Shown here in pieces: positions 27,161 through 38,485 of a DNA stretch of 64,000 bases; position 1 is the stretch's first letter, and each line of letters begins with the position of its first letter. Made by a program: the position numbers and the translations under genes. The notes below the pieces were generated by a model. It was not told the DNA's origin. It saw only the letters and a list, made by a program, of their open reading frames with translations, and did no database searches. The DNA is from Proteobacteria bacterium bin106 (lineage in GTDB: Bacteria > Bdellovibrionota_B > Oligoflexia > Oligoflexales > Bin106). Location: contig MPNI01000002.1 of NCBI GenBank assembly GCA_002238945.1, positions 72,855-136,854 of the forward strand, written 5' to 3'.

Positions 27161-28702
27161 ATGCATCAACGCTCCTCCACCCGGATTATTTGGAACCTAT
27201 CAGCCAGGCAACTGCTTAACTCAAAAGTAGGTTGTTGTCTTATCGGAGCCGGTGATAAGCCTGAGGTCAACAAACCGCCATTCATCCAATGGCCCCATGG
27301 CTTATGCATTGAATCGTCTCAAAGACACAAAAAAGAGACCTTATCTTATCTCCATAAAATGCGTACTTACTTTGCCTCACTGCAAAGCCCTATGCCTGCA
27401 CTTATGCTCTCATTTCGCAAAACACCTAAAGGGCACGTGCTCTCTGAGAGCCAAGATGTGACAACAGGTCAAACCATCATGATCTACGCCTCAAACCAAA
27501 CCCGTCAACACAGTCAACATAGTCGTCAACACAGTCAACATAGTCGTCAACATAATAAACCACAAAACAACTCTCCTTTGTGCCCATCAGTTGTGGTTTC
27601 TATGCAAGACTTTGCAAGTGTGCGTTGTGGTGATGAGCTTTATTTTGGCTATGGAGATTGTGTTGTTAAGGCTTTAGAGGTTAAAGAAAAAAGCCTCTTA
27701 GCTGAAGTGGTATCCCAAGGTACCATCCATACTGAAGCTTCCTTTGTTGTGGATGTCTCTGACGAAACCACAGAAAACCTCTTAGAGCAACACATCAGTG
27801 CCGGAGAGCTTAAACAGGTCGGTGTGAATTATCTCATGTTACCCGGCTCGCTATCACCAAAAACCGTTAAAACTTTACGCCGGCATCTTAGGCGAGATGA
27901 TGAAACCTCTCCATGGCTGATCTTTCGCATCGATTCCAAACAGGCTATTAAGCGCTTTCGCGCTGTTGAAGAGGATGTTGATGGGGTGATGATCTCAAGA
28001 CGAGATCTTGCTCTCACAGAAAATCCTGACATGCTGCCTATTCTTACCAAAGAATTGATTGCCCGCTGTCGCTATAAAGCCAAACTAGCCATTGTTGCCT
28101 CTCATATGTTGGGCTCCATGAGACAACAGGTCACACCTACCCGTGCAGAGGTGAGTGATATCGCTTATGCGGTTTTTGATGGAGCTGATGCCATCACTCT
28201 TCCTGAAAAAACCCTCATAGGCCCTTATGGAACCACTGCCACCGAAGTTGCCTCACGAGTCATTGAAGATGTCACCTCCAATCGTTCAACGTTACATCAT
28301 CATCATAACAAACTGCGAGATGTGGATCCTTCAGATATGGAAATGGATGTGATCTGTATCGAAGCTGCAAAAACAGCTCTACACATTAACGCTAAGGCCC
28401 TTGTCTGTATAACCAAAACCGGAAATACCGCCCTGCGTCTTTCCAGTATTGATATAGGACTGCCCATTATCGCTATCACTTTCCATGAAACCATCTCCCG
28501 TAAGCTGCAACTCCTCAGAGGAGTGGAAAGTCTTGTGCTCAAATCCAACCCAGGAGTAGATAAAATATTGCCACGTATCAATGAACTCATCAAAGCCATG
28601 GGATGGCTTAAAAAAGGCGATAAAATTGTCTTTGTTACGGTCACTCTTTCTTCCATGAGTGATGAAGCCAGTAACCTCTTTACGGTCCAAAATATCTATT
28701 GA
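27161..28702 (+). CDS. pyruvate-kinase-like protein with degenerate catalytic motifs
   Basis: PTRAEVSDIAYAVFDGADAITL, SHMLGSM and MISRRDLALTE align to PK motifs (PTRAE.SDVANAV.DG.D..ML, TQMLESM, MVARGDLGVE). The N-terminal K+/substrate motifs are not conserved. Contains an RQHSQHS repeat. Confidence 0.6.
   Translation: MHQRSSTRIIWNLSARQLLNSKVGCCLIGAGDKPEVNKPPFIQWPHGLCIESSQRHKKETLSYLHKMRTYFASLQSPMPALMLSFRKTPKGHVLSESQDVTTGQTIMIYASNQTRQHSQHSRQHSQHSRQHNKPQNNSPLCPSVVVSMQDFASVRCGDELYFGYGDCVVKALEVKEKSLLAEVVSQGTIHTEASFVVDVSDETTENLLEQHISAGELKQVGVNYLMLPGSLSPKTVKTLRRHLRRDDETSPWLIFRIDSKQAIKRFRAVEEDVDGVMISRRDLALTENPDMLPILTKELIARCRYKAKLAIVASHMLGSMRQQVTPTRAEVSDIAYAVFDGADAITLPEKTLIGPYGTTATEVASRVIEDVTSNRSTLHHHHNKLRDVDPSDMEMDVICIEAAKTALHINAKALVCITKTGNTALRLSSIDIGLPIIAITFHETISRKLQLLRGVESLVLKSNPGVDKILPRINELIKAMGWLKKGDKIVFVTVTLSSMSDEASNLFTVQNIY
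27504..27557. repeat. 21-nt tandem repeat (cgtcaacacagtcaacatagt x2.6), in frame
   Basis: Read directly; encodes RQHSQHS-RQHSQHS-RQHN. Confidence 0.9.
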
Positions 28703-28876
28703 TATCCGTGATATCAAATAGCACACTCACTCATCACCTTGACCTTTCTTGCCGACCATGATAGTCTGGCGTGCCTATCTTGGAAAAGATGGTGGTGCTT
28801 AGAAAAAAGCACTTTCACCACAACTTCCATAAGGCTAACCCAACTCCAACATTTACCATCGCCGAGAGTCTTTCAT

Positions 28877-30409
28877 ATGCTACGTTCATGCGAACTTTTT
28901 GCTGTCTTTCTGATATTACTGAGTTTATCCATTGATCACACTTACGGACAAAACAATCCCTCATCAGCACGTTCTTATCTTGATGATATTTTTGAATCAG
29001 GTGGTGCCTTAGATCAAGAACCAATAACAGATAGATCAGCTTCTTTTTTCTCTGCATTTTTGCCAAACCAGCAATTTGTATTAAATCCTAACTATAACAA
29101 TAAACGCCCAGCAGTAAGAATTCGTTTTCTACAATCGGTACACTTTGATGCAGGACCTTCACTCCAAAAACGTACTTCCTCTCTTAAAGTCACATTGATC
29201 GGAACACAGCAACAAACCAGCACAGATGAGCAAGGACGCCTTATAATCAGCAACCTTCCTCCAGGAAGTGAATTTCTCTTAGCTTCAGGAGAAGATATTA
29301 CCTATAAGCCCATGCTTCACAGAGTGATTGTACCCACAGCCATAGACGAAGAAGACACACCTATGATCTCACTAGAACAGATCACCACAGAGCATTTTAA
29401 CTCATGGCTTGAAGCTGTGGGTATAAAAGAAGAAAACAACCGTGGGCATATTTGTGGAAAAGTGTCATGGCAAAGTCATCAAAACACCAACAAAACTTTT
29501 CGAAAAAACTTTAAAGTTTCTATTTTTCAAAGCTCCGTTCAACCTATCTACTTTGATGCCAATGGTCAGGTTAATTTAGACCTTAAAGCCACTTCCTCTT
29601 CAGGAAAATTCTGCTTCTTCAATCACCCAGCAGAATCTGTGCTCTTAAGTGTTGCGTTTAATGATGTAAGCGCTCCCCTAAGAACCTTAAGTGCCGTATT
29701 TGCAGGCTACACCACCTCTATCGATATCATCAATGTAGCTGAACCTTCTCCTTATGACATCACATATTTACATGGAGGTTCAGCCACCGATTTAACCCTT
29801 CATGTCCCACAACCACAATTCCTTCATACCCAACCACAACCATCCACCAGACCCTTACATGTCATTGAAGGACAGATCAAACACAACCGCGCGCAACCAC
29901 AAACTGGCACCAAAGTATCTCAATTACGTGACGCTAATAGTGTCTCGTTATCTCTTCATACAGCTGCCCGAAGACCCACTGTTAGCACCACAAACCCTCT
30001 TTGGGAAAGTGCTCTAAGCACCATCCCTCCTATGGACGCCACAGATCATCATTTCCTCTTAGTCTTCCCCAAAAGCACCTTTTCTGAACTTGCTCACATG
30101 ATTGGAGCAGGGTTCATAGAAAATCTATCCTCTTTGATAATCACTCATGGTCTTAAGCCTCAAGAAAAAAACATCTCTGTTATAAGTGAGCTATGGGATG
30201 AAAGAGGACTGGTGAAAAAACACGACTGGCTACGTGTCCATGACAATGACGTATTACACGCTGCTTTCTTTAATCTTTATCCTGGCCGTTATCAGTGGCT
30301 TCTCAAATCTGAAAACGGTTATTGGTTAGACAGTCGTGTTGTGGATATTTTAGAAAGAATTCATCACTCTGTACAATCAGGAAGACAGTACATACTCACA
30401 GAAAAGTAA
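28877..30409 (+). CDS. secreted protein with carboxypeptidase-regulatory-like beta-sandwich domain(s)
   Basis: The ATG at 28877 gives signal peptide MLRSCELFAVFLILLSLSIDHTYG|Q. The segment LKVTLIGTQQQTSTDEQGRLIISNLPPGSEFLL resembles CarboxypepD_reg. The ORF track starts at TTG 28739. Confidence 0.5.
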   Translation: MLRSCELFAVFLILLSLSIDHTYGQNNPSSARSYLDDIFESGGALDQEPITDRSASFFSAFLPNQQFVLNPNYNNKRPAVRIRFLQSVHFDAGPSLQKRTSSLKVTLIGTQQQTSTDEQGRLIISNLPPGSEFLLASGEDITYKPMLHRVIVPTAIDEEDTPMISLEQITTEHFNSWLEAVGIKEENNRGHICGKVSWQSHQNTNKTFRKNFKVSIFQSSVQPIYFDANGQVNLDLKATSSSGKFCFFNHPAESVLLSVAFNDVSAPLRTLSAVFAGYTTSIDIINVAEPSPYDITYLHGGSATDLTLHVPQPQFLHTQPQPSTRPLHVIEGQIKHNRAQPQTGTKVSQLRDANSVSLSLHTAARRPTVSTTNPLWESALSTIPPMDATDHHFLLVFPKSTFSELAHMIGAGFIENLSSLIITHGLKPQEKNISVISELWDERGLVKKHDWLRVHDNDVLHAAFFNLYPGRYQWLLKSENGYWLDSRVVDILERIHHSVQSGRQYILTEK

Positions 30410-30452
30410 TCCAAAAGATGCTTACGCAAACATCATATAAGATATAGAAAAA

Positions 30453-30486
30453 CCCAACCTCAACAAAAGAGATTGGGCTTTTTTTA
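30453..30486. terminator. putative bidirectional intrinsic terminator between convergent genes
   Basis: cccaa-c-ctc / gag-a-ttggg hairpin, flanked by an A-run on the left and T7 on the right, so there is a U-tract on both strands. Confidence 0.5.
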
Positions 30487-30530
30487 TTAAAATATTGATT
30501 CACGTCACACATGTTTAAATCACTGAACAG

Positions 30531-30566
30531 CTTATTGCACAACTTATTGCACAACTTATTGCACAA
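30531..30566. repeat. 12-nt tandem repeat (cttattgcacaa x3) containing the stop codon of the repeat lipoprotein
   Basis: Read directly. On the minus strand it reads gtt gtg caa taa x3, i.e. VVQ-stop three times in frame. Confidence 0.9.
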
Positions 30567-31965
30567 CGAGCACCAACGCTTGATCACCTAAGTAGGATAG
30601 ATCATTAACATTTTTATACAAAGCTAAACACGTACCATAGTGAGAAAAATCAAACTTCGTATTCCGCTCCACAGGTTGGCTGCCTTCTGCAGTCAAGTCA
30701 GATGTGTAATTCCCTGAACTCACTGAGCCCAAGACCACATCAGAACCTTTCATATAGACATTTCCTTGATTAACCTCTAAGCCAAGAGCTTGGGTTATAA
30801 GGCGGCCACTTTTTACCACAAATGTAGCTAAGGTGCTGGCTGTCACTCGATACAGTGAACCAAACAACACTGTGGCAAAACCAGCATAATCCAAAATACT
30901 ACCTTGATCATCTACCTGATTGCTATACAACGTTGTCACATAACGATCTATGACATATTCCCCACCGTCATGATAAATGACCTGATTAACCGCATTTTCA
31001 CACGCCAAATCACCTCTCGTTTCTTGAGCCCACATTCTCACGGTTTCTCCTTGAGCACCAGTGCCTCCTGTCTGTTGTTGCATAGCGCCTTTGCCCTGCA
31101 ATACACCAGCCTTACCTTTACCTTGCGCTACACCGCCTTGAAGAACACCACCCTTACCTTGACCTACGCCACCTTTGCCCTGAAGTACACCACCCTTACC
31201 TTGACCTACACCACCTTTGCCCTGAAGAACGCCACCCTTACCTTGACCTACGCCACCTTTGCCCTGAAGAACACCGCCCTTACCCTGCGCTACACCGCCC
31301 TGAAGAACGCCACCCTTACCTTGACCTACACCGCCTTTGCCTTGAAGAACACCACCCTTACCTTGACCTACACCGCCTTTGCCTTGAAGAACACCGCCTT
31401 GAAGAACACCGCCCTTACCTTGCAATACGCCTCCTTGAAGTACGCCGCCTTTAGTTGGTTCTCCTTTGCCTACAACCACAGCACCTTGCATGACACCGCC
31501 CTGAAGAACACCACCCTTACCTTGACCTACACCGCCTTTGCCTTGAAGTACGCCACCTTTGCCTTGACCTACACCGCCTTTGCCTTGAAGTACGCCGCCC
31601 TTGCCTTGAAGAACACCACCCTTACCTTGCAATACGCCACCTTTACCCTGAAGTACGCCGCCTTTGCCTTGACCTACACCACCTTGCTGGACGACTCCAC
31701 CTTGAAGTACGCCTTTTTGGCTAACCACAGTACCGCTGCTATCTTCAGGAACTTCTTCCACATCCTCAAGAACTTCCTCTGGCTCTTCTTGTTCCTGAAT
31801 TTCTTCAACAGGTGGTGGTGCAGCGGGAGCGTCAGGCTCGTTTGGAGCCAAAGTCTGATCTGCTGACTCACCACAGCTCCACACAATTACGCTAGCAAAA
31901 CACACACAGGCCAGCATTTTATAGGCACTCAAAGTAAACAATTGCCTGTTAACCAATGTTTTCAT
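30556..31965 (-). CDS. lipoprotein with an acidic linker, about 30 Gly-rich heptad repeats and a Cys-bracketed C-terminal domain
   Basis: ATG at 31965 has GGGGAG 8 nt upstream. Signal/lipobox MKTLVNRQ...VIVWSC|G. GKGGV[LG]Q repeats span aa ~87-299. The C-terminal domain is paralogous to CDS 32251..33132. Confidence 0.6.
   Translation of the reverse strand: MKTLVNRQLFTLSAYKMLACVCFASVIVWSCGESADQTLAPNEPDAPAAPPPVEEIQEQEEPEEVLEDVEEVPEDSSGTVVSQKGVLQGGVVQQGGVGQGKGGVLQGKGGVLQGKGGVLQGKGGVLQGKGGVGQGKGGVLQGKGGVGQGKGGVLQGGVMQGAVVVGKGEPTKGGVLQGGVLQGKGGVLQGGVLQGKGGVGQGKGGVLQGKGGVGQGKGGVLQGGVAQGKGGVLQGKGGVGQGKGGVLQGKGGVGQGKGGVLQGKGGVGQGKGGVLQGGVAQGKGKAGVLQGKGAMQQQTGGTGAQGETVRMWAQETRGDLACENAVNQVIYHDGGEYVIDRYVTTLYSNQVDDQGSILDYAGFATVLFGSLYRVTASTLATFVVKSGRLITQALGLEVNQGNVYMKGSDVVLGSVSSGNYTSDLTAEGSQPVERNTKFDFSHYGTCLALYKNVNDLSYLGDQALVLVVQ
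31078..31716. repeat. 21-nt (heptad) tandem repeat array, with a 42-nt higher-order unit in part
   Basis: Near-identical units, read directly, encoding GKGGVLQ/GKGGVGQ with shorter GGVLQ/GGVAQ variants. Confidence 0.95.
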
Positions 31966-32250
31966 ACTTCTCACTCCCCAACCTTTTCATGATTACTGAC
32001 CATCTAAAATCTTTACTTCAGCTCTAATGTCTAATCGTTATCACTGCCTTAATTATGCTGGGCAACGCTTTTGCCAATCTATCCTGCATTTAAAGACCTC
32101 ATGATTCTCGGACAAGCAAGGAAGCAAATAAGTAATATTTTCCTAAGAACTTATTTTTGTTTTTAATATCAATGAGTTAAGCAATAATCCTTGCCGCTTC
32201 TTTGTGGCAGGGATCGGCTAAAAGGGACATAAAAAAAAGCTATTTAGGTG

Positions 32251-33132
32251 TTATTTTAAAGGCGTTGCACGCAAGTAATGCTCTACTTGAGGCAGTTTGG
32301 GTAGAAGTAAAAGAGGCATGCCGCCGGAGAAATAAGCCCCTGCTGCATTTTTATAAGTAGCAAGACATGCTCCATAGGCTGATAAGTTAAGAAGATAGTT
32401 TTCCCCTTCCTCACTTACGGCCTCTTTTTTGATCAACTCACCCAAAGGATGAATATATTCATGACGCTCTGCTCCGTCTGTTGAGGTTCTCACAAACTTC
32501 AACACCAAATAACCTTCTCGCTCACCAACGGAAGCATGACGATACCAATGGCCTGATATCAAATTGCGAAAGCCAGGTATGAATCTATTTCTACGTCCGG
32601 TGACATCTATGTAATAGAATTCAAATCTCTTATGCAACATATGCTTAAACACACTCAATTGCACATATGTTTCAGCCATAGCAAAGGCATAAGAGCCAAT
32701 CTGAATCACCTGATTTGCAGGATCATCACAAGCCTCAGAAACAGGAGCGCGGCTTGCTCTCATGGCTCTGGTGCTCATGGGGTTTGTGCTACCAGCTGGA
32801 ATGTTAGCATTAACGTTTTCTGCTGTCATGTTCGAGCTTATCCCAGTCGGCTCTGTGGAAGGAGGTATCCTACTCGCATCTCTTGGTATTCTTGGCATCC
32901 TAACCACTTCTTCACCCTCCATAGCCACCGGTGGGCGAGAACGTGGTGACATCACCACCGTTTCCCCTCTCATAGGCTCAGCTGCAGCATCAACAAAATC
33001 ACTTTCCGTAACTGTTGGCCCCTGACGACGTGTTATGGGTATATCTCCACAACCACTAACAAGTTCACAAAAAAGCGCACATATGATCAGTGAATGCTTG
33101 CTTTTAGCTGTTGCCATATCTACACAGAACAT
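32251..33132 (-). CDS. lipoprotein, paralog of the 30556..31965 C-terminal domain
   Basis: ATG at 33132 has AAGGAG 6 nt upstream. Lipobox ELVSGC|G. Pro/Arg/Met-rich linker. Shared motifs AC[ED]xxxNQVI and YGxCLAxYKN at the same spacing. Confidence 0.55.
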   Translation of the reverse strand: MFCVDMATAKSKHSLIICALFCELVSGCGDIPITRRQGPTVTESDFVDAAAEPMRGETVVMSPRSRPPVAMEGEEVVRMPRIPRDASRIPPSTEPTGISSNMTAENVNANIPAGSTNPMSTRAMRASRAPVSEACDDPANQVIQIGSYAFAMAETYVQLSVFKHMLHKRFEFYYIDVTGRRNRFIPGFRNLISGHWYRHASVGEREGYLVLKFVRTSTDGAERHEYIHPLGELIKKEAVSEEGENYLLNLSAYGACLATYKNAAGAYFSGGMPLLLLPKLPQVEHYLRATPLK

Positions 33133-33350
33133 ATGAAACTCCTTAACACATCTCTTAAGCTCTTACTTTTAGCCTGGCTCTGTGAAACTCGGCTTAGCCA
33201 AGCAGATCATAAGACAGCGTGCTAGGCGATTTTTTTCGTATCCATCTGATTCATCTTGCAAACAAGCTGCCTAGAAAAGCTTAAAAGATGTTATGTTGTA
33301 GAAAATGTGTTTGAATCATTCAACACCCACACATACTTCTTGATCAAAGC

Positions 33351-35207
33351 TTGAATCATTCACAGGCACTTATGTTCACAGCCCTCAAACAACACCCCCT
33401 TTTTCAACTCTGGCTTAAACGTAAAGATTGGCGACGTAGAAGCGTTGTAGGAGCTGTATTTTCTTCTCTGAACAAGCTCTTTGATATCGCCCCAGAAATT
33501 CTTATTGGCCTTGCTGTAGATACTGTGGTGAATCGAGAAAGCAGTTTTCTTGCTGATATCCTTCATACCTCAGATCTTTTTTCCCAAATCCTCGCCCTTG
33601 GCGCTCTTACATTTCTTATTTGGGGACTCGAGTCTGTTTTTGAGTATTTACAAAAAATCACCTGGCGACGACTGGCACAAAATGTTCAACATGCCTTACG
33701 TATCGAAGCTTTCAGCCAAACCATTCATTATGCATTGAGTTGGTTTGAAAAAGAAACCACCGGAAACTACGTAACAACATTAAATGAAGATATCCATCAA
33801 CTGGAAAGATTTCTTGATGGTGGTATCAACACCATCATTCAACTGATCTGTTCAACGGTTTTTGTGTCATTGGTGTTTTTTTATGTCTCTCCCTTATTGG
33901 GCATTCTCTCTTTAATTCCCATCCCTTTACTCTTTGTGTGGTCTTCTCTATTTCATAAAAAATTACGCACCCTCTATAGCTTTGCACGCAAAGCCTCAGA
34001 AGATGTAGCGGTACGACTTAGTGGAGTCTTTTCAGGTATTGTGGTGATAAAAAGTTTTAATCAAGAAGATAATGAAACCAAAACACTCACCTCATTATCC
34101 AATGCCTATGTGGAAGCTAACCAGAAAGCTATTCTACTCAGCAGTGCTTTCACTCCCACTGTAAGAGTGTTTATTCTGCTGGGTTTTCTTTCCACATTGA
34201 TGGTAGGAGGATATTTGTGTCTTAGCGGAAAAATTGGTGTACCTGCTTACTCCATCGTGGTTTTCCTCACCCAACGCCTACTTTGGCCCTTCACCACCCT
34301 TGCTGAAACCATCGATCAATATCAACGCGCTATGGCTTCAAGTCATAGAGTGATGACATTCCTTTCTCAAAAAACCCAAAACCTCGAAGCAGCACAGCTT
34401 GCCACACCTAGCCCTATAACCAGCCCTATAACTAGCACTATAACTAGCACCCCGCCTTCTGCTTTGACATGTCAAAGCTTGCACTTTAAAGATGTTCACT
34501 TTTCTTACCCAGCATCTGAAAAGCCCACTTTGATAAATGTGAATATTGCAGCAAAAAAAGGTGAAGTGATTGGCATCTGTGGCCCAACAGGCAGTGGTAA
34601 ATCCACTCTTGCCAAACTCTTGCTACAGTTTTATCCACCAGCATCAGGAGGTATTTATTTTGATGATCATCTCACAGGAACAAGTCTACCCCAAGCCATG
34701 CGTCATTCCATAGCTTTTGTTTCACAAGACACGTTCTTGTTCGATGACACCATCGGCCATAACCTACTCTATGGCAATCCTGATGCCACAACGAGCCAAC
34801 TTCAAGAGGTGATGGATTTATGCAAGCTTTCTCCGTGGATAGCCACCTTACAAGAAGGCCTCAACACCGTTATTGGCGAAAGAGGGGTGAAGATATCAGG
34901 AGGACAAAGACAAAGGATATCACTAGCACGAGCATTGCTCAAAAAAGCACCCATTCTCGTCCTCGATGAAGCCACCTCTGCCATCGATAATGATACCGAA
35001 AAAGATATTAATGAGGTGATTTACGGACAAGCAAGCGATAAAATCACGCTCGTCATTGCCCACCGGCTCTCTACCATCAGAGCCGCTCATCGTATTTATG
35101 TGCTTGTAGAAGGGAAAGTTACCGAAACAGGAACCCATCAAGATCTCTGCAACAAACCACAAGGCACTTACCATAATCTGTGGAAACTTCAAACAGGAGA
35201 GTCTTAA
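33351..35207 (+). CDS. ABC exporter, fused permease/ATPase (MsbA-like type I)
   Basis: Six-TM domain, then Walker A GPTGSGKST, signature ISGGQRQR and Walker B ILVLDEATSAID. The linker carries the SPITSPITSTITST repeat. Start is TTG 33351 or ATG 33372. Confidence 0.85.
   Translation: MNHSQALMFTALKQHPLFQLWLKRKDWRRRSVVGAVFSSLNKLFDIAPEILIGLAVDTVVNRESSFLADILHTSDLFSQILALGALTFLIWGLESVFEYLQKITWRRLAQNVQHALRIEAFSQTIHYALSWFEKETTGNYVTTLNEDIHQLERFLDGGINTIIQLICSTVFVSLVFFYVSPLLGILSLIPIPLLFVWSSLFHKKLRTLYSFARKASEDVAVRLSGVFSGIVVIKSFNQEDNETKTLTSLSNAYVEANQKAILLSSAFTPTVRVFILLGFLSTLMVGGYLCLSGKIGVPAYSIVVFLTQRLLWPFTTLAETIDQYQRAMASSHRVMTFLSQKTQNLEAAQLATPSPITSPITSTITSTPPSALTCQSLHFKDVHFSYPASEKPTLINVNIAAKKGEVIGICGPTGSGKSTLAKLLLQFYPPASGGIYFDDHLTGTSLPQAMRHSIAFVSQDTFLFDDTIGHNLLYGNPDATTSQLQEVMDLCKLSPWIATLQEGLNTVIGERGVKISGGQRQRISLARALLKKAPILVLDEATSAIDNDTEKDINEVIYGQASDKITLVIAHRLSTIRAAHRIYVLVEGKVTETGTHQDLCNKPQGTYHNLWKLQTGES
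34410..34448. repeat. 12-nt tandem repeat (agccctataacc x3.3), in frame
   Basis: Read directly; encodes (SPIT/STIT)n in the ABC exporter's TMD-NBD linker. Confidence 0.9.
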
Positions 35208-35586: not shown

Positions 35587-35610
35587 TTCTATAGCTAGTT
35601 CTATAGCTAG
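35587..35610. repeat. 12-nt tandem repeat (ttctatagctag x2) spanning the secA stop codon
   Basis: Read directly. The secA TAG (35607-35609) lies in the second copy. Confidence 0.85.
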
Positions 35611-38444
35611 GAAACATTCCTGCCACAACAATGTTTATACTTCTTTTTTGAACCACATGGACACGGATCATTACGACCCACCTTTTTTTCAGACTTACGT
35701 ACCACAGTTCCCAGACTTTTTTGAGACGAACTCTGACCCTCTGTCATAGCTCGTCTACCATCACTGTTATCTCCACCACCAGCTCCATGATAAGATACAC
35801 GCTTATCAAGATCCAAGTCCGCTGTTTTCTTATTAAGAATCTTGCGAGCTTTTTTGGGAAGAGTGTTTAAAGCATCGCTGAGTAACGCTTGAGTCGTTGG
35901 ACTCACCTCAGCTGTATCTTGCTGCTGTTCTTGCTGTTCTTGTTCTCCTTGTTGTTGCTGCTGTTCTTGTAAGGCAGCCTCTTTAGCACGCACAATTTCT
36001 TGGCGTGGAGGCACAGATAACAAAAAGCGGCTTATCTCACGATTGATGGTATCCATCAATCGGCTAAATAATTGATAAGCTTCTTTTTTATACTCCTGAA
36101 GAGGATCCCTTTGCCCATAACCACGTAATCTTACCGCATCTTTCAAACCATCCATATCCAAGAGATGACTCTTCCATTTCACATCCACTATTTGCAAATA
36201 CACCGACTGAGAAAGAGAATGGATTTCTTTAAACTCTTTAAGCACATCAAGTACATCGTCACATTTTTTATGAAGGTCCTGTTTGAGTATATCAAGAAAA
36301 GACTCCTCATCTTGAGGTAATGGTGCCGAACGTGATACATCGTCTTTGCTTCCTAAAATCACAGGAACGTAATGAAAGAGCTCCTGAGCCTTCTCTCTCA
36401 TTTTAGCTAAAGGCCAGCTGTCACGTTCTTCTTGATCATCTTTGAGCTGTTTTGGCACTAAAGAAGAATCGTGCGTATCTTTATCCATCGCTTGAAGCTC
36501 TTTAACCATGGCAGCATCTTCGAGTAACTCTGCTGCCATACGATCCACAGCATCAAACATCACCTCAGCAAAGTCCATTTCACCTCTAAGAGCCTCACCA
36601 CGTCTTTGATAAATAATCGTGCGCTGAGTGTTCATCACATCATCGTATTCTAGAAGATGCTTTCTTGATGAAAAGTTTTGTTCTTCCACACGTTTTTGAG
36701 CTTTTTCAATAGCCCGTGACACCATGGATGATTCAATAGCTGCACCACCTGTAAGACCCATGGTTTTCATAATTCCTGATAAACGATCTGAAGCAAAAAT
36801 ACGCATCAAATCATCTTCTAAAGACAGATAAAAACTGCTTTTTCCAGGATCACCTTGACGGCCTGAACGCCCCCTCAGCTGATTATCAATACGACGTGAT
36901 TCATGACGCTCTGTACCGATAACCAACAAACCACCTAAAGCTAAGGTTTCATCGCTTAACTGAATATCCGTTCCTCGACCTGCCATATTGGTAGCAATGG
37001 TGACATGTCCGCGCTCTCCAGCATGAGCAATAATATCCGCCTCACGAGAATGGTTTTTGGCATTAAGAATCTCATGAGGAGTGCCCTTATCTTTAAGAAG
37101 AGATGATAACAGCTCTGATTTTTCCACCGATGTTGTTCCTACCAGAACCGGCTGACCACGATGCGATTCTTTGGCAATCTGAGCAGCAATAGCTTCAAAT
37201 TTCTCAGAAGCTGTACGATACACCACATCCACCATATCCTGACGAATAATGGGCTTATTGGTGGGAATAACGACCACATCGAGATTGTAAATCTTCTTAA
37301 ACTCCACAGCCTCTGTATCAGCCGTACCTGTCATGCCAGAAAGAGTAGGGTACATGCGAAAGAAATTCTGAAAGGTAATACTCGCTAGAGTTTGTGTCTC
37401 TTTTTGGACCTCCACACTTTCTTTAGCCTCAAGGGCTGAATGCAAACCATCACCATAACGCCTACCAGGCATCAAACGCCCGGTGTGTTCATCGATGATC
37501 ATCACCCGGTTTTGCTGAACCACATAATGCACATCCTTTTTAAATAACACCTCAGCTTTAAGCGCCTGATGAATATGATGCAATAAATGTGCATGGGAAA
37601 GATCAAACATATTGGCTATCTTTAAACGCTTTTCTATACGTGATACCCCATCATCTGTTAAAGAAACACTACGGGATTTTTCATCGATCACATAATCACT
37701 GTCTTTGCGTAATCCTGTAATGGTCCGTCGCGCAAGATGATAACTGTCCTGCTCACCTTCAGCATCACCCGAAATAATCAAAGGAGTACGAGCCTCATCG
37801 ATAAGAATAGAGTCCACTTCATCCACAATGGCAAAATGAAAAGGCCTTTGTACCAAGTGATCCACATCCACTTTCATATTATCGCGCAAATAATCAAAGC
37901 CAAACTCGTTGTTAGTACCATAGGTGATATCAGCAGCATAAGCCTTCTTACGCTCCGCATAAGACAAACCCTGAACAATCACCCCAACCGATAAACCCAG
38001 AAAAGTATATGTGGCTCCCATCCACTTAGCATCACGCTGAGCTAAATACTCATTAACCGTAACAACATGAGCACCTTTGCCGGTTAAACCTCTTAAATAA
38101 CACGGCAAAGTTGCTGTAAGTGTTTTACCTTCACCGGTTTTCATCTCAGCAATATTGCCATAATGCAAGACAATACCACCAGCAAGTTGTACAGGGAAAT
38201 GTCTTTGAGAAAGAACACGTTTGCTCGCTTCACGACATACCGCAAACACTTCACATAACAGATCATCAAGAGATTTTCCGTTACGCAACAATTCTTTGAA
38301 ATAAGGCGTTTTAGCTTGCAACTCCTCATCGCTCAAAGCACTGATAGTAGGCTCTAAAGCCTCTATGTTTTTGACTAAAGGAGATATCTTTTTTTTAAGA
38401 ATTCTATCGTTTTGGGTGCCAAACAATCGCTGCATAAAAGCCAT
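35607..38444 (-). CDS. secA: preprotein translocase ATPase SecA
   Basis: MAFMQRLFGTQNDRILKK N-terminus, DEAD-like motifs (MKTGEGKTL, DEVDSILIDEARTPLIISG), TNMAGRGTDI, and the C-terminal Zn finger CPCGSKKKYKHCCG. ATG at 38444 has AGGTG 6 nt upstream. Confidence 0.97.
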   Translation of the reverse strand: MAFMQRLFGTQNDRILKKKISPLVKNIEALEPTISALSDEELQAKTPYFKELLRNGKSLDDLLCEVFAVCREASKRVLSQRHFPVQLAGGIVLHYGNIAEMKTGEGKTLTATLPCYLRGLTGKGAHVVTVNEYLAQRDAKWMGATYTFLGLSVGVIVQGLSYAERKKAYAADITYGTNNEFGFDYLRDNMKVDVDHLVQRPFHFAIVDEVDSILIDEARTPLIISGDAEGEQDSYHLARRTITGLRKDSDYVIDEKSRSVSLTDDGVSRIEKRLKIANMFDLSHAHLLHHIHQALKAEVLFKKDVHYVVQQNRVMIIDEHTGRLMPGRRYGDGLHSALEAKESVEVQKETQTLASITFQNFFRMYPTLSGMTGTADTEAVEFKKIYNLDVVVIPTNKPIIRQDMVDVVYRTASEKFEAIAAQIAKESHRGQPVLVGTTSVEKSELLSSLLKDKGTPHEILNAKNHSREADIIAHAGERGHVTIATNMAGRGTDIQLSDETLALGGLLVIGTERHESRRIDNQLRGRSGRQGDPGKSSFYLSLEDDLMRIFASDRLSGIMKTMGLTGGAAIESSMVSRAIEKAQKRVEEQNFSSRKHLLEYDDVMNTQRTIIYQRRGEALRGEMDFAEVMFDAVDRMAAELLEDAAMVKELQAMDKDTHDSSLVPKQLKDDQEERDSWPLAKMREKAQELFHYVPVILGSKDDVSRSAPLPQDEESFLDILKQDLHKKCDDVLDVLKEFKEIHSLSQSVYLQIVDVKWKSHLLDMDGLKDAVRLRGYGQRDPLQEYKKEAYQLFSRLMDTINREISRFLLSVPPRQEIVRAKEAALQEQQQQQGEQEQQEQQQDTAEVSPTTQALLSDALNTLPKKARKILNKKTADLDLDKRVSYHGAGGGDNSDGRRAMTEGQSSSQKSLGTVVRKSEKKVGRNDPCPCGSKKKYKHCCGRNVS

Positions 38445-38485
38445 GAAACACACCTACACCAAAACCATAGAAAACATTTACAAGC

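Follow-up and report, generated by a model that had tools for sequence, protein, structure and literature searches.

Two adjacent minus-strand genes in a 64,000-nucleotide stretch of Proteobacteria bacterium bin106 (contig MPNI01000002.1 of assembly GCA_002238945.1; the whole 64-kb stretch is hereafter called the window) encode proteins that open with an export signal, continue with tethers of entirely different composition and end in domains that resemble each other chiefly in two short motifs. The question raised by this locus is whether the two products, of gene A and gene B, are relatives at all and, if so, what such a pair would do. An earlier reading of the DNA by itself (the sequence-only reading) had taken them for paralogous lipoproteins with a common C-terminal domain, and the family search, the alignments and hhalign bear out that they are true paralogues sharing this domain. 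We propose, with as much doubt as conviction, that A and B are anciently diverged paralogues in a hitherto undescribed envelope protein family and would act as tethered binding modules and as a cooperating pair.

At the pairwise level the relationship between A and B is faint. The motif pairs that had been noticed first, ACENAVNQVI/ACDDPANQVI and YGTCLALYKN/YGACLATYKN, are present and, in six frames of the 64-kb window, confined to these two open reading frames (ORFs). BLASTP of A against B aligned these two motifs alone (E 0.002 and 0.15), and in a shuffle test the whole domain gave a z of about 7 and the 110 residues between the motifs a z of about 0. Such marginal E values, and an inter-motif region that scores like shuffled sequence, would also be expected if the motifs were coincidental or if the ORFs, especially that of the repeat-rich gene A, were not real genes, and the gene A repeat indeed yields a 320-residue antisense ORF as well.

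The family search speaks against this explanation. When 1.84 billion cluster representatives were searched exhaustively by HMMER with a two-sequence profile, 13 further proteins emerged (E 2e-13 to 8e-4), all of the same architecture and with the domain at the C terminus, and the same search recovered gene B (E 5e-89) and, via P0002, gene A (E 2e-77). As had been supposed, the family is small, and it is confined to one lineage, with 15 clusters at 50 % identity among all these representatives, most of them singletons. Comparison of eight A-type with nine B-type domains using hhalign gave a probability of 99.2 % and an E value of 2.6e-19 over 149 columns, showing that A-type and B-type domains are homologous over their full length despite an identity of just 15-25 % for any A/B pair in the 21-domain alignment. 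The earlier claim of kinship is thus weak when the two proteins are aligned directly, where it reaches no further than the motifs, and holds firmly at the level of profiles. In addition, the gene pair is kept in seven other contigs, Shine-Dalgarno sequences are properly spaced in both genes, and two independent AlphaFold runs model the domain confidently. Chance or artefact, to which we assign virtually no weight, is excluded.

Both ORFs have the good Shine-Dalgarno sequences ascribed to them, with AAGGAG located 6 nt upstream of the gene B start (ATG at 33132) and GGGGAG 8 nt upstream of the likeliest gene A start (ATG at 31965, giving 469 residues). The latter ATG is also used in the NCBI gene call for the same contig (GCA_026712765.1, JAPOPS010000065.1, 'MAG: Proteobacteria bacterium'), and the gene B product is identical to the NCBI entry 'hypothetical protein OXC44_06160'. 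The GTG at 31974, from which the ORF list starts gene A, is less likely than the ATG at 31965, which NCBI uses. The 320-residue ORF antisense to the gene A repeats (30904..31866, plus strand) is built of reverse-complement repeats and is nearly certain to be an artefact of these, not a gene. At the other end of gene A, a 12-bp tandem repeat at 30527..30567 (GCAATAAGTTGT, 3.4 copies) includes the TAA stop codon, and the gene end reads VQ followed by a stop three times in frame; slippage at this site would leave the protein unchanged.

The members of the family split into two architectures, each matching one of the genes in the window, and tether type and conserved motifs are specific to each subfamily. 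In A-type proteins an acidic block and Gly-rich repeats resembling GKGGVxQ come after the Cys-Gly site, and the domain closes with LVLVxP. In B-type proteins DIxxxRR usually follows the Cys-Gly site, the linker is rich in Pro and charged residues, and the domain contains VLIAGxWYxP and FSGGxPxLxLP as motifs and is followed by a short aromatic tail; gene B has the post-Cys motif in the form CGDIxxxRR in common with the B-type proteins of the related contigs L019, L021 and L023 and with P0007. The A-type domains have a mean identity of 38 % and the B-type domains of 27 %.

Searches for more distant relatives were negative throughout. Word-indexed homologue searches, whether started from gene B, the A domain or the 15-sequence alignment, returned the window's own protein alone. 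Scanning the GTDB species genomes for the YGxCLAxYKN motif gave 12 matches, which are due to chance as all of them are out of frame or interrupted by stop codons, and scanning the JGI metagenome collection and IMG/VR with the gene B protein gave no match; a degenerate A-type C-terminal pattern hit the JGI metagenome collection once, by chance, in an unrelated long ORF. Proteins A and B of the window have no Pfam or NCBIfam match at E <= 1, and the 15 family members gave scattered weak matches to these databases, each from one member and none at the curated cut-off. No sequence or profile match was found in the PDB, and Foldseek against the PDB gave no match either, every listed hit having an E value of at least 0.18. 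The domain, which had gone unrecognised at first sight, fits no described family in Pfam, NCBIfam, the PDB sequences or the PDB structures searched with Foldseek, and the family adds a domain without detectable relative in Pfam, NCBIfam or the PDB.

Probable lipid anchor, tethers and the cysteine-bracketed domain

Lipoboxes had been read in both genes, an assignment that stands for B and not for A. We applied a strict lipobox pattern, [LVI][ASTVI][GAS]C at the end of the N-terminal hydrophobic segment, and a second, PROSITE-like core pattern. LVSG-C28 of gene B fits both, with a Glu at position -5 that shortens the hydrophobic segment, whereas VWS-C31 of gene A fits neither because of the Trp at position -2; C31 aligns with the near-invariant Cys-Gly column of the family. 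Among the 21 members the strict pattern is found in nine and the PROSITE-like core in 17, and the anchor Cys, usually followed by Gly, forms a near-invariant column of the alignment. Taken together, these counts and this column make lipidation likely for the family as a whole; for gene B it is well supported by both patterns, and for gene A we infer it from the position of C31. In E. coli, a lipoprotein with Asp at position +2 avoids the outer membrane, while Gly at +2 leads to it. As residue +2 is Gly and not Asp, sorting to the outer membrane is predicted here as well, although the E. coli rule may not transfer to this lineage. In the proposed mechanism, the Cys-Gly site would be lipidated and, following the E. 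coli rule, sorted to the outer membrane.

The linkers that follow are unrelated, as described previously, with an acidic block and Gly heptads in A versus a Pro/Arg/Met-rich stretch in B. The heptad array of gene A extends over about 225 residues, of which 42 % are Gly, and the acidic blocks of other A-type proteins hold the same position as in gene A. The gene B tether has no alignable counterpart in the rest of the family. Counted from the anchor Cys up to the first Cys of the domain, the tethers are 184-290 residues long in A-type versus 69-169 residues in B-type proteins, and the A-type tether is the longer one in all seven genomes. The gene A linker is predicted to be disordered (in the AlphaFold model of the full-length protein, residues 32-316 have a predicted local distance difference test score, pLDDT, below 50 and no secondary structure), and the composition of the gene B tether suggests that it is disordered too. 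Disordered tethers would let the domains reach a partner distant from the anchoring membrane. The domains also differ in charge, those of the A-types being acidic, with an isoelectric point of 4.4-5.2 in six of seven genomes, and those of the B-types neutral to basic, at 6.3-9.5.

At the DNA level, Tandem Repeats Finder assigns the gene A repeat to 31088..31685 with periods of 21, 42, 78 and 120. The array differs by one 42-bp unit between two near-identical assemblies (L001 and L002), resulting in proteins of 469 versus 455 residues (a difference of 14 residues), while P0010 and P0017 differ by one GGVQQ unit and P0012 and P0018 by about two heptads, with the domains nearly unchanged. These differences in array length could be real population variation or the collapse of repeats during assembly. 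Tether lengths that vary by repeat units between near-identical strains, in three lineages, would be in line with the surface display proposed in the sequence-only reading, a scheme in which the proteins are exported to the cell surface, their disordered stalks hold the domains outward to bind host matrix or other cells within the sponge, and slippage-prone repeats vary the length of the stalk. The acidic residues after the anchor Cys in most A-type proteins point in the same direction.

The domain itself is modelled with confidence. AlphaFold2, using the 15-sequence domain alignment with B as the target, predicted 12 beta strands and only short helices (pLDDT 91.7, predicted template modelling score 0.86), and the model of full-length A comprises a signal-peptide helix at residues 4-29 and, at the C terminus, an all-beta domain with a pLDDT of about 90. 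The ends of the domain are built alike in the two models, the first Cys being located in a short N-terminal helix and the second being the first residue of the penultimate strand. These two Cys are the sole invariant columns in the alignment of 21 domains, which includes a third paralogue type, and every member has exactly two Cys in its mature protein after the anchor Cys. The suggestion of a disulfide-closed domain predicts precisely such a pair, invariant and without other Cys in the mature protein; the spacing of 126 and 123 residues given with it has to be corrected to 124 in A (C322 and C446) and 121 in B (C135 and C256). An invariant Cys pair together with an export signal is what one would expect for a structural disulfide. 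Within the oxidising envelope, the two Cys would form a disulfide that pins the N-terminal segment to the penultimate strand, and the domain of roughly 150 residues is, judging from this conservation, probably closed by one disulfide. Since the 21 domains have no invariant polar residue except the two Cys, no catalytic residue is apparent, and the domains would be binding modules rather than enzymes. With a confident AlphaFold model and no Foldseek neighbour, the domain is a sensible candidate for structure determination.

A probable lipid anchor, a small beta domain and a putative disulfide in a host-associated bacterium are also in general agreement with a defensive role, in which disulfide-stabilised beta-domain lipoproteins block host lysozymes or proteases in the manner of the inhibitors MliC/PliC, PliI or PliG. 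We consider this quite improbable, as no inhibitor structure is present among the Foldseek hits in the PDB (all those listed at E of 0.18 or above), no sequence match to the PDB or Pfam was found, and no surface loop motif is kept across the family, in which only the two Cys are invariant. Tethers of 70-290 residues and an obligate pair are not known as features of MliC/PliC, PliI or PliG.

Inheritance of the gene pair

All six contigs with an A-type gene (L019, L021, L023/L024, L025, L026 and L027) carry a B-type gene directly upstream on the same strand, and on L029, from a second NCBI metagenome-assembled genome, an A-type gene begins after the B-type gene of P0013. All seven other contigs in which the downstream gene is visible thus have B before A; L028 ends 283 nt past its B gene and was left out of this count. 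The genomes concerned are well separated, with pyruvate kinases 39-44 % identical to that of the window and a local GC content of 31-52 %. A neighbour-joining tree resolves the A, B and C types as distinct clades, with the groupings L019+L021+L023 and L025+L026 recurring in both the A and the B clade. Separate clades, shared groupings and diverged genomes together indicate that the duplication predates the lineage and that the pair was co-inherited. By these sequence comparisons, A and B are not a recent local duplication but an ancient B-then-A pair that has been vertically inherited across a deep lineage. The terminator-like hairpin downstream of gene A is a weak hint, rather than evidence, that B and A could be one transcript, and the region has fewer such sites than its shuffles. 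A phage or mobile origin was considered and rejected, with no viral match found and no mobile genes adjoining the pair in the window.

The neighbours of the locus are core genes, namely those for pyruvate kinase, PEPCK, SurA, MurB and Alr. Pyruvate kinase and a lineage-specific secreted protein X adjoin the B-A pair in six of eight genomes (as seen in L019, L021, L023, L025 and L027), and in the window the pair is located on the other side of the two. When protein X, its homologues and the secreted acidic-repeat proteins described below were compared with Pfam, only sub-threshold matches were obtained, that of X being to CarboxypepD_reg, and whether pyruvate kinase and X are part of the same system as the pair is uncertain.

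In L019, L021 and L023/L024 the family hidden Markov model (HMM) also picks out a third and more divergent paralogue, the C-type, which lies downstream of A at a distance of two or three called genes. C-type proteins combine a Cys-Gly site with a long linker, acidic and rich in Pro/Ser/Thr, and a domain that retains both Cys. The family also adds an unusual arrangement, conserved between genomes, in which two or three paralogues differ in tether type. The C-type of L019 is split over two overlapping ORFs, by a frameshift or a long-read error, and that of L023 is called in two pieces and intact in L024. Between A and C in L019 and L021 lies a gene for a secreted acidic-repeat protein without a Pfam family, which consists of an N-terminal region of about 150 residues (37 % identical between L019 and L021) and long acidic tandem repeats. 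This protein is absent from the window, where the family HMM finds two copies only, with the next best score at E 0.07. It is tempting to speculate that the domain is a new fold and that A, B and, in some genomes, C form a hitherto unknown hetero-oligomeric apparatus of the envelope or surface, specific to a deep uncultured sponge-associated lineage, in which the repeat tether sets the working distance and to whose system protein X and the acidic-repeat protein belong, for example in host-matrix attachment or sensing. We regard this extended proposal as unlikely.

A single-copy member (P0009/P0016) mixes A-like (YLDRYTTT) and B-like (SGGYPLLVLP) motifs and may represent the state before the duplication. 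One of the samples carrying the gene of the window, SRR8093131, is a metagenome of the sponge Aplysina aerophoba. Being restricted to a deep uncultured lineage, at least some members of which inhabit marine sponges, the family is a candidate lineage marker.

Where the tethered domains may act

Diderm bacteria are known to act at some distance from the membrane by means of tethered lipoproteins, LpoB and RcsF among them. LpoB is the outer-membrane lipoprotein activator of PBP1B in Enterobacteriaceae and consists of an anchor, a long disordered linker and a small C-terminal domain that reaches its partner across the periplasm, a layout that is also predicted for A and B. Neither sequence nor Foldseek similarity was detected between LpoB and the A and B domains, however, and the LpoB domain is an alpha/beta domain that is not known to have a bracketing disulfide. 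The LpoB linker is about 55 residues long, compared to 69-290 residues in the present family, and LpoB has no known paralogous partner gene. RcsF, an outer-membrane stress-sensor lipoprotein, likewise combines an anchor and a disordered linker with a small domain, which is stabilised by disulfides made in the periplasm and in this resembles the domain with its putative disulfide described here. RcsF has two disulfides and an alpha/beta fold and is encoded by a single gene, and no similarity to the present family was detected using PDB sequences and Foldseek. The succession of an acidic and a basic repeat block in the gene A tether is, by analogy, reminiscent of TonB, whose spacer, (Glu-Pro)n-(Lys-Pro)m, spans the periplasm. 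In contrast to the Pro-rich, rigid spacer of TonB, the basic block of gene A is Gly-rich and predicted to be disordered; moreover, the membrane anchor of the present family would be a lipobox rather than a transmembrane helix, and the C-terminal domains are unrelated.

Surface lipoproteins offer a second set of comparisons. The Neisserial proteins fHbp and TbpB, which depend on Slam, share with the present family a lipid anchor, which is probable here, as well as a flexible tether, beta-rich domains and a host-associated bacterium. They are not among the Foldseek PDB hits, and no neighbouring gene has a Pfam family that indicates such a translocon. The Vlp and Vsa proteins of Mycoplasma are lipoproteins that carry tandem repeats in frame, in copy numbers that vary from strain to strain. 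They consist essentially of repeats and show phase and size variation, whereas here the repeats form a spacer in front of a conserved folded domain encoded at a stable, vertically inherited locus.

By analogy with LpoB and RcsF, to which the resemblance is purely one of architecture, A and B may serve a conserved function within the cell envelope and bridge the periplasm as these proteins do, and we hold this to be slightly short of an even proposition. We lean towards a role within the envelope because of the vertical inheritance, the core-gene neighbourhood and the conservation of the A domain, which resembles that of a housekeeping enzyme (a mean identity of 38 % for A-type domains, about the same as the 39-44 % of pyruvate kinase). 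The A and B domains would cooperate and might do so as a heteromer. Surface display, for which the variable stalks argued above, is further favoured by the occurrence of the lineage in sponge metagenomes and by the rapid divergence of the B-type domains (27 % mean identity). The same pyruvate kinase-like conservation of the A-type domain weighs against it, as does a locus that is single-copy, vertically inherited and located among core genes, unlike that of a variable surface antigen. Furthermore, no surface-export machinery or signal was identified, and Foldseek finds no likeness to known surface-lipoprotein barrels. We therefore regard surface display as a serious but doubtful alternative.

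Several observations weigh against the proposed pair of tethered envelope modules. Lipidation, disulfide and location are all putative, and VWSC of gene A is not a canonical lipobox, so that this protein might be cleaved by signal peptidase I instead. The heteromer is proposed from co-occurrence, from the agreement of the A and B trees and from opposite charge, and the conserved neighbourhood may be due to inheritance of gene order and not to any functional link. The fold does not require pairing, since the lineage of P0009/P0016 has a single copy without a partner within 8 kb on either side. Finally, varying repeat numbers and a host-associated life are just as compatible with surface exposure. 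The family could form part of the envelope of this lineage or contribute to its contact with the host.

Gene coordinates and other features of the window

Table 1. Positions of genes A and B, their parts and associated loci (window positions unless a contig is named)
Feature	Location	Strand	Description
Gene B (B-type)	32251..33132	-	293-residue ORF; lipobox signal peptide, Pro/Arg/Met-rich tether, C-terminal beta domain and short conserved tail
Gene B signal peptide	33049..33132	-	ends in lipobox LVSG-C28, followed by GDIPITRR (B-type motif CGDIxxxRR)
Gene B tether, residues 29-126	32755..33048	-	13 Pro, 11 Arg and 7 Met in 98 residues; net charge about 0
Gene B domain, residues 127-293	32254..32754	-	12 beta strands predicted by AlphaFold; C135 at 32728..32730, C256 at 32365..32367; tail with short helix
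Gene A (A-type)	30556..31965	-	469-residue ORF; signal peptide, acidic block, Gly/Lys heptads, beta domain forming the C terminus
Gene A signal peptide	31873..31965	-	atypical site VWS-C31-G; helix predicted at residues 4-29
Gene A acidic block, residues 32-75	31741..31872	-	44 residues; net charge -17
Gene A Gly/Lys heptad array, residues 76-300	31066..31740	-	20 GKGGVxQ and 8 shortened GGVxQ units; net charge +25
Gene A domain, residues 314-469	30559..31026	-	C322 at 31000..31002, C446 at 30628..30630; acidic, isoelectric point 4.4
Terminator-like hairpin with T run	30448..30482	-	downstream of gene A; sole such site in 30300..33450
Pyruvate kinase	27161..28702	+	context gene
Secreted protein X	28739..30409	+	context gene; probable start Met47 of the listed ORF, inferred from the NCBI call of 510 residues
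C-type loci	L019 7847..9326; L021 9364..10608; L024 8559..9977		located with the family HMM
Secreted acidic-repeat protein	L019 6274..7614; L021 7525..9105		between A and C
P0009/P0016, single-copy member	L020 169..936; L030 8001..8768		adjoins fliG; no partner within 8 kb on either side

A search of the 64-kb window with Rfam gave no family at threshold, tRNA included. The pyruvate kinase of the window has an N-terminal extension with the low-complexity sequence QHSRQHSQHSRQHSQHSRQH, and SecA (35607..38453, minus strand) contains a Gln/Glu-rich stretch (QEQQQQQGEQEQQEQQQ) near its C terminus. The GC skew of the window takes strongly negative values (about -0.1 to -0.3) between roughly 16 and 62 kb and turns positive only around 10-14 kb, and the large ORFs lie mostly on the minus strand in the negative stretch and on the plus strand in the positive one.

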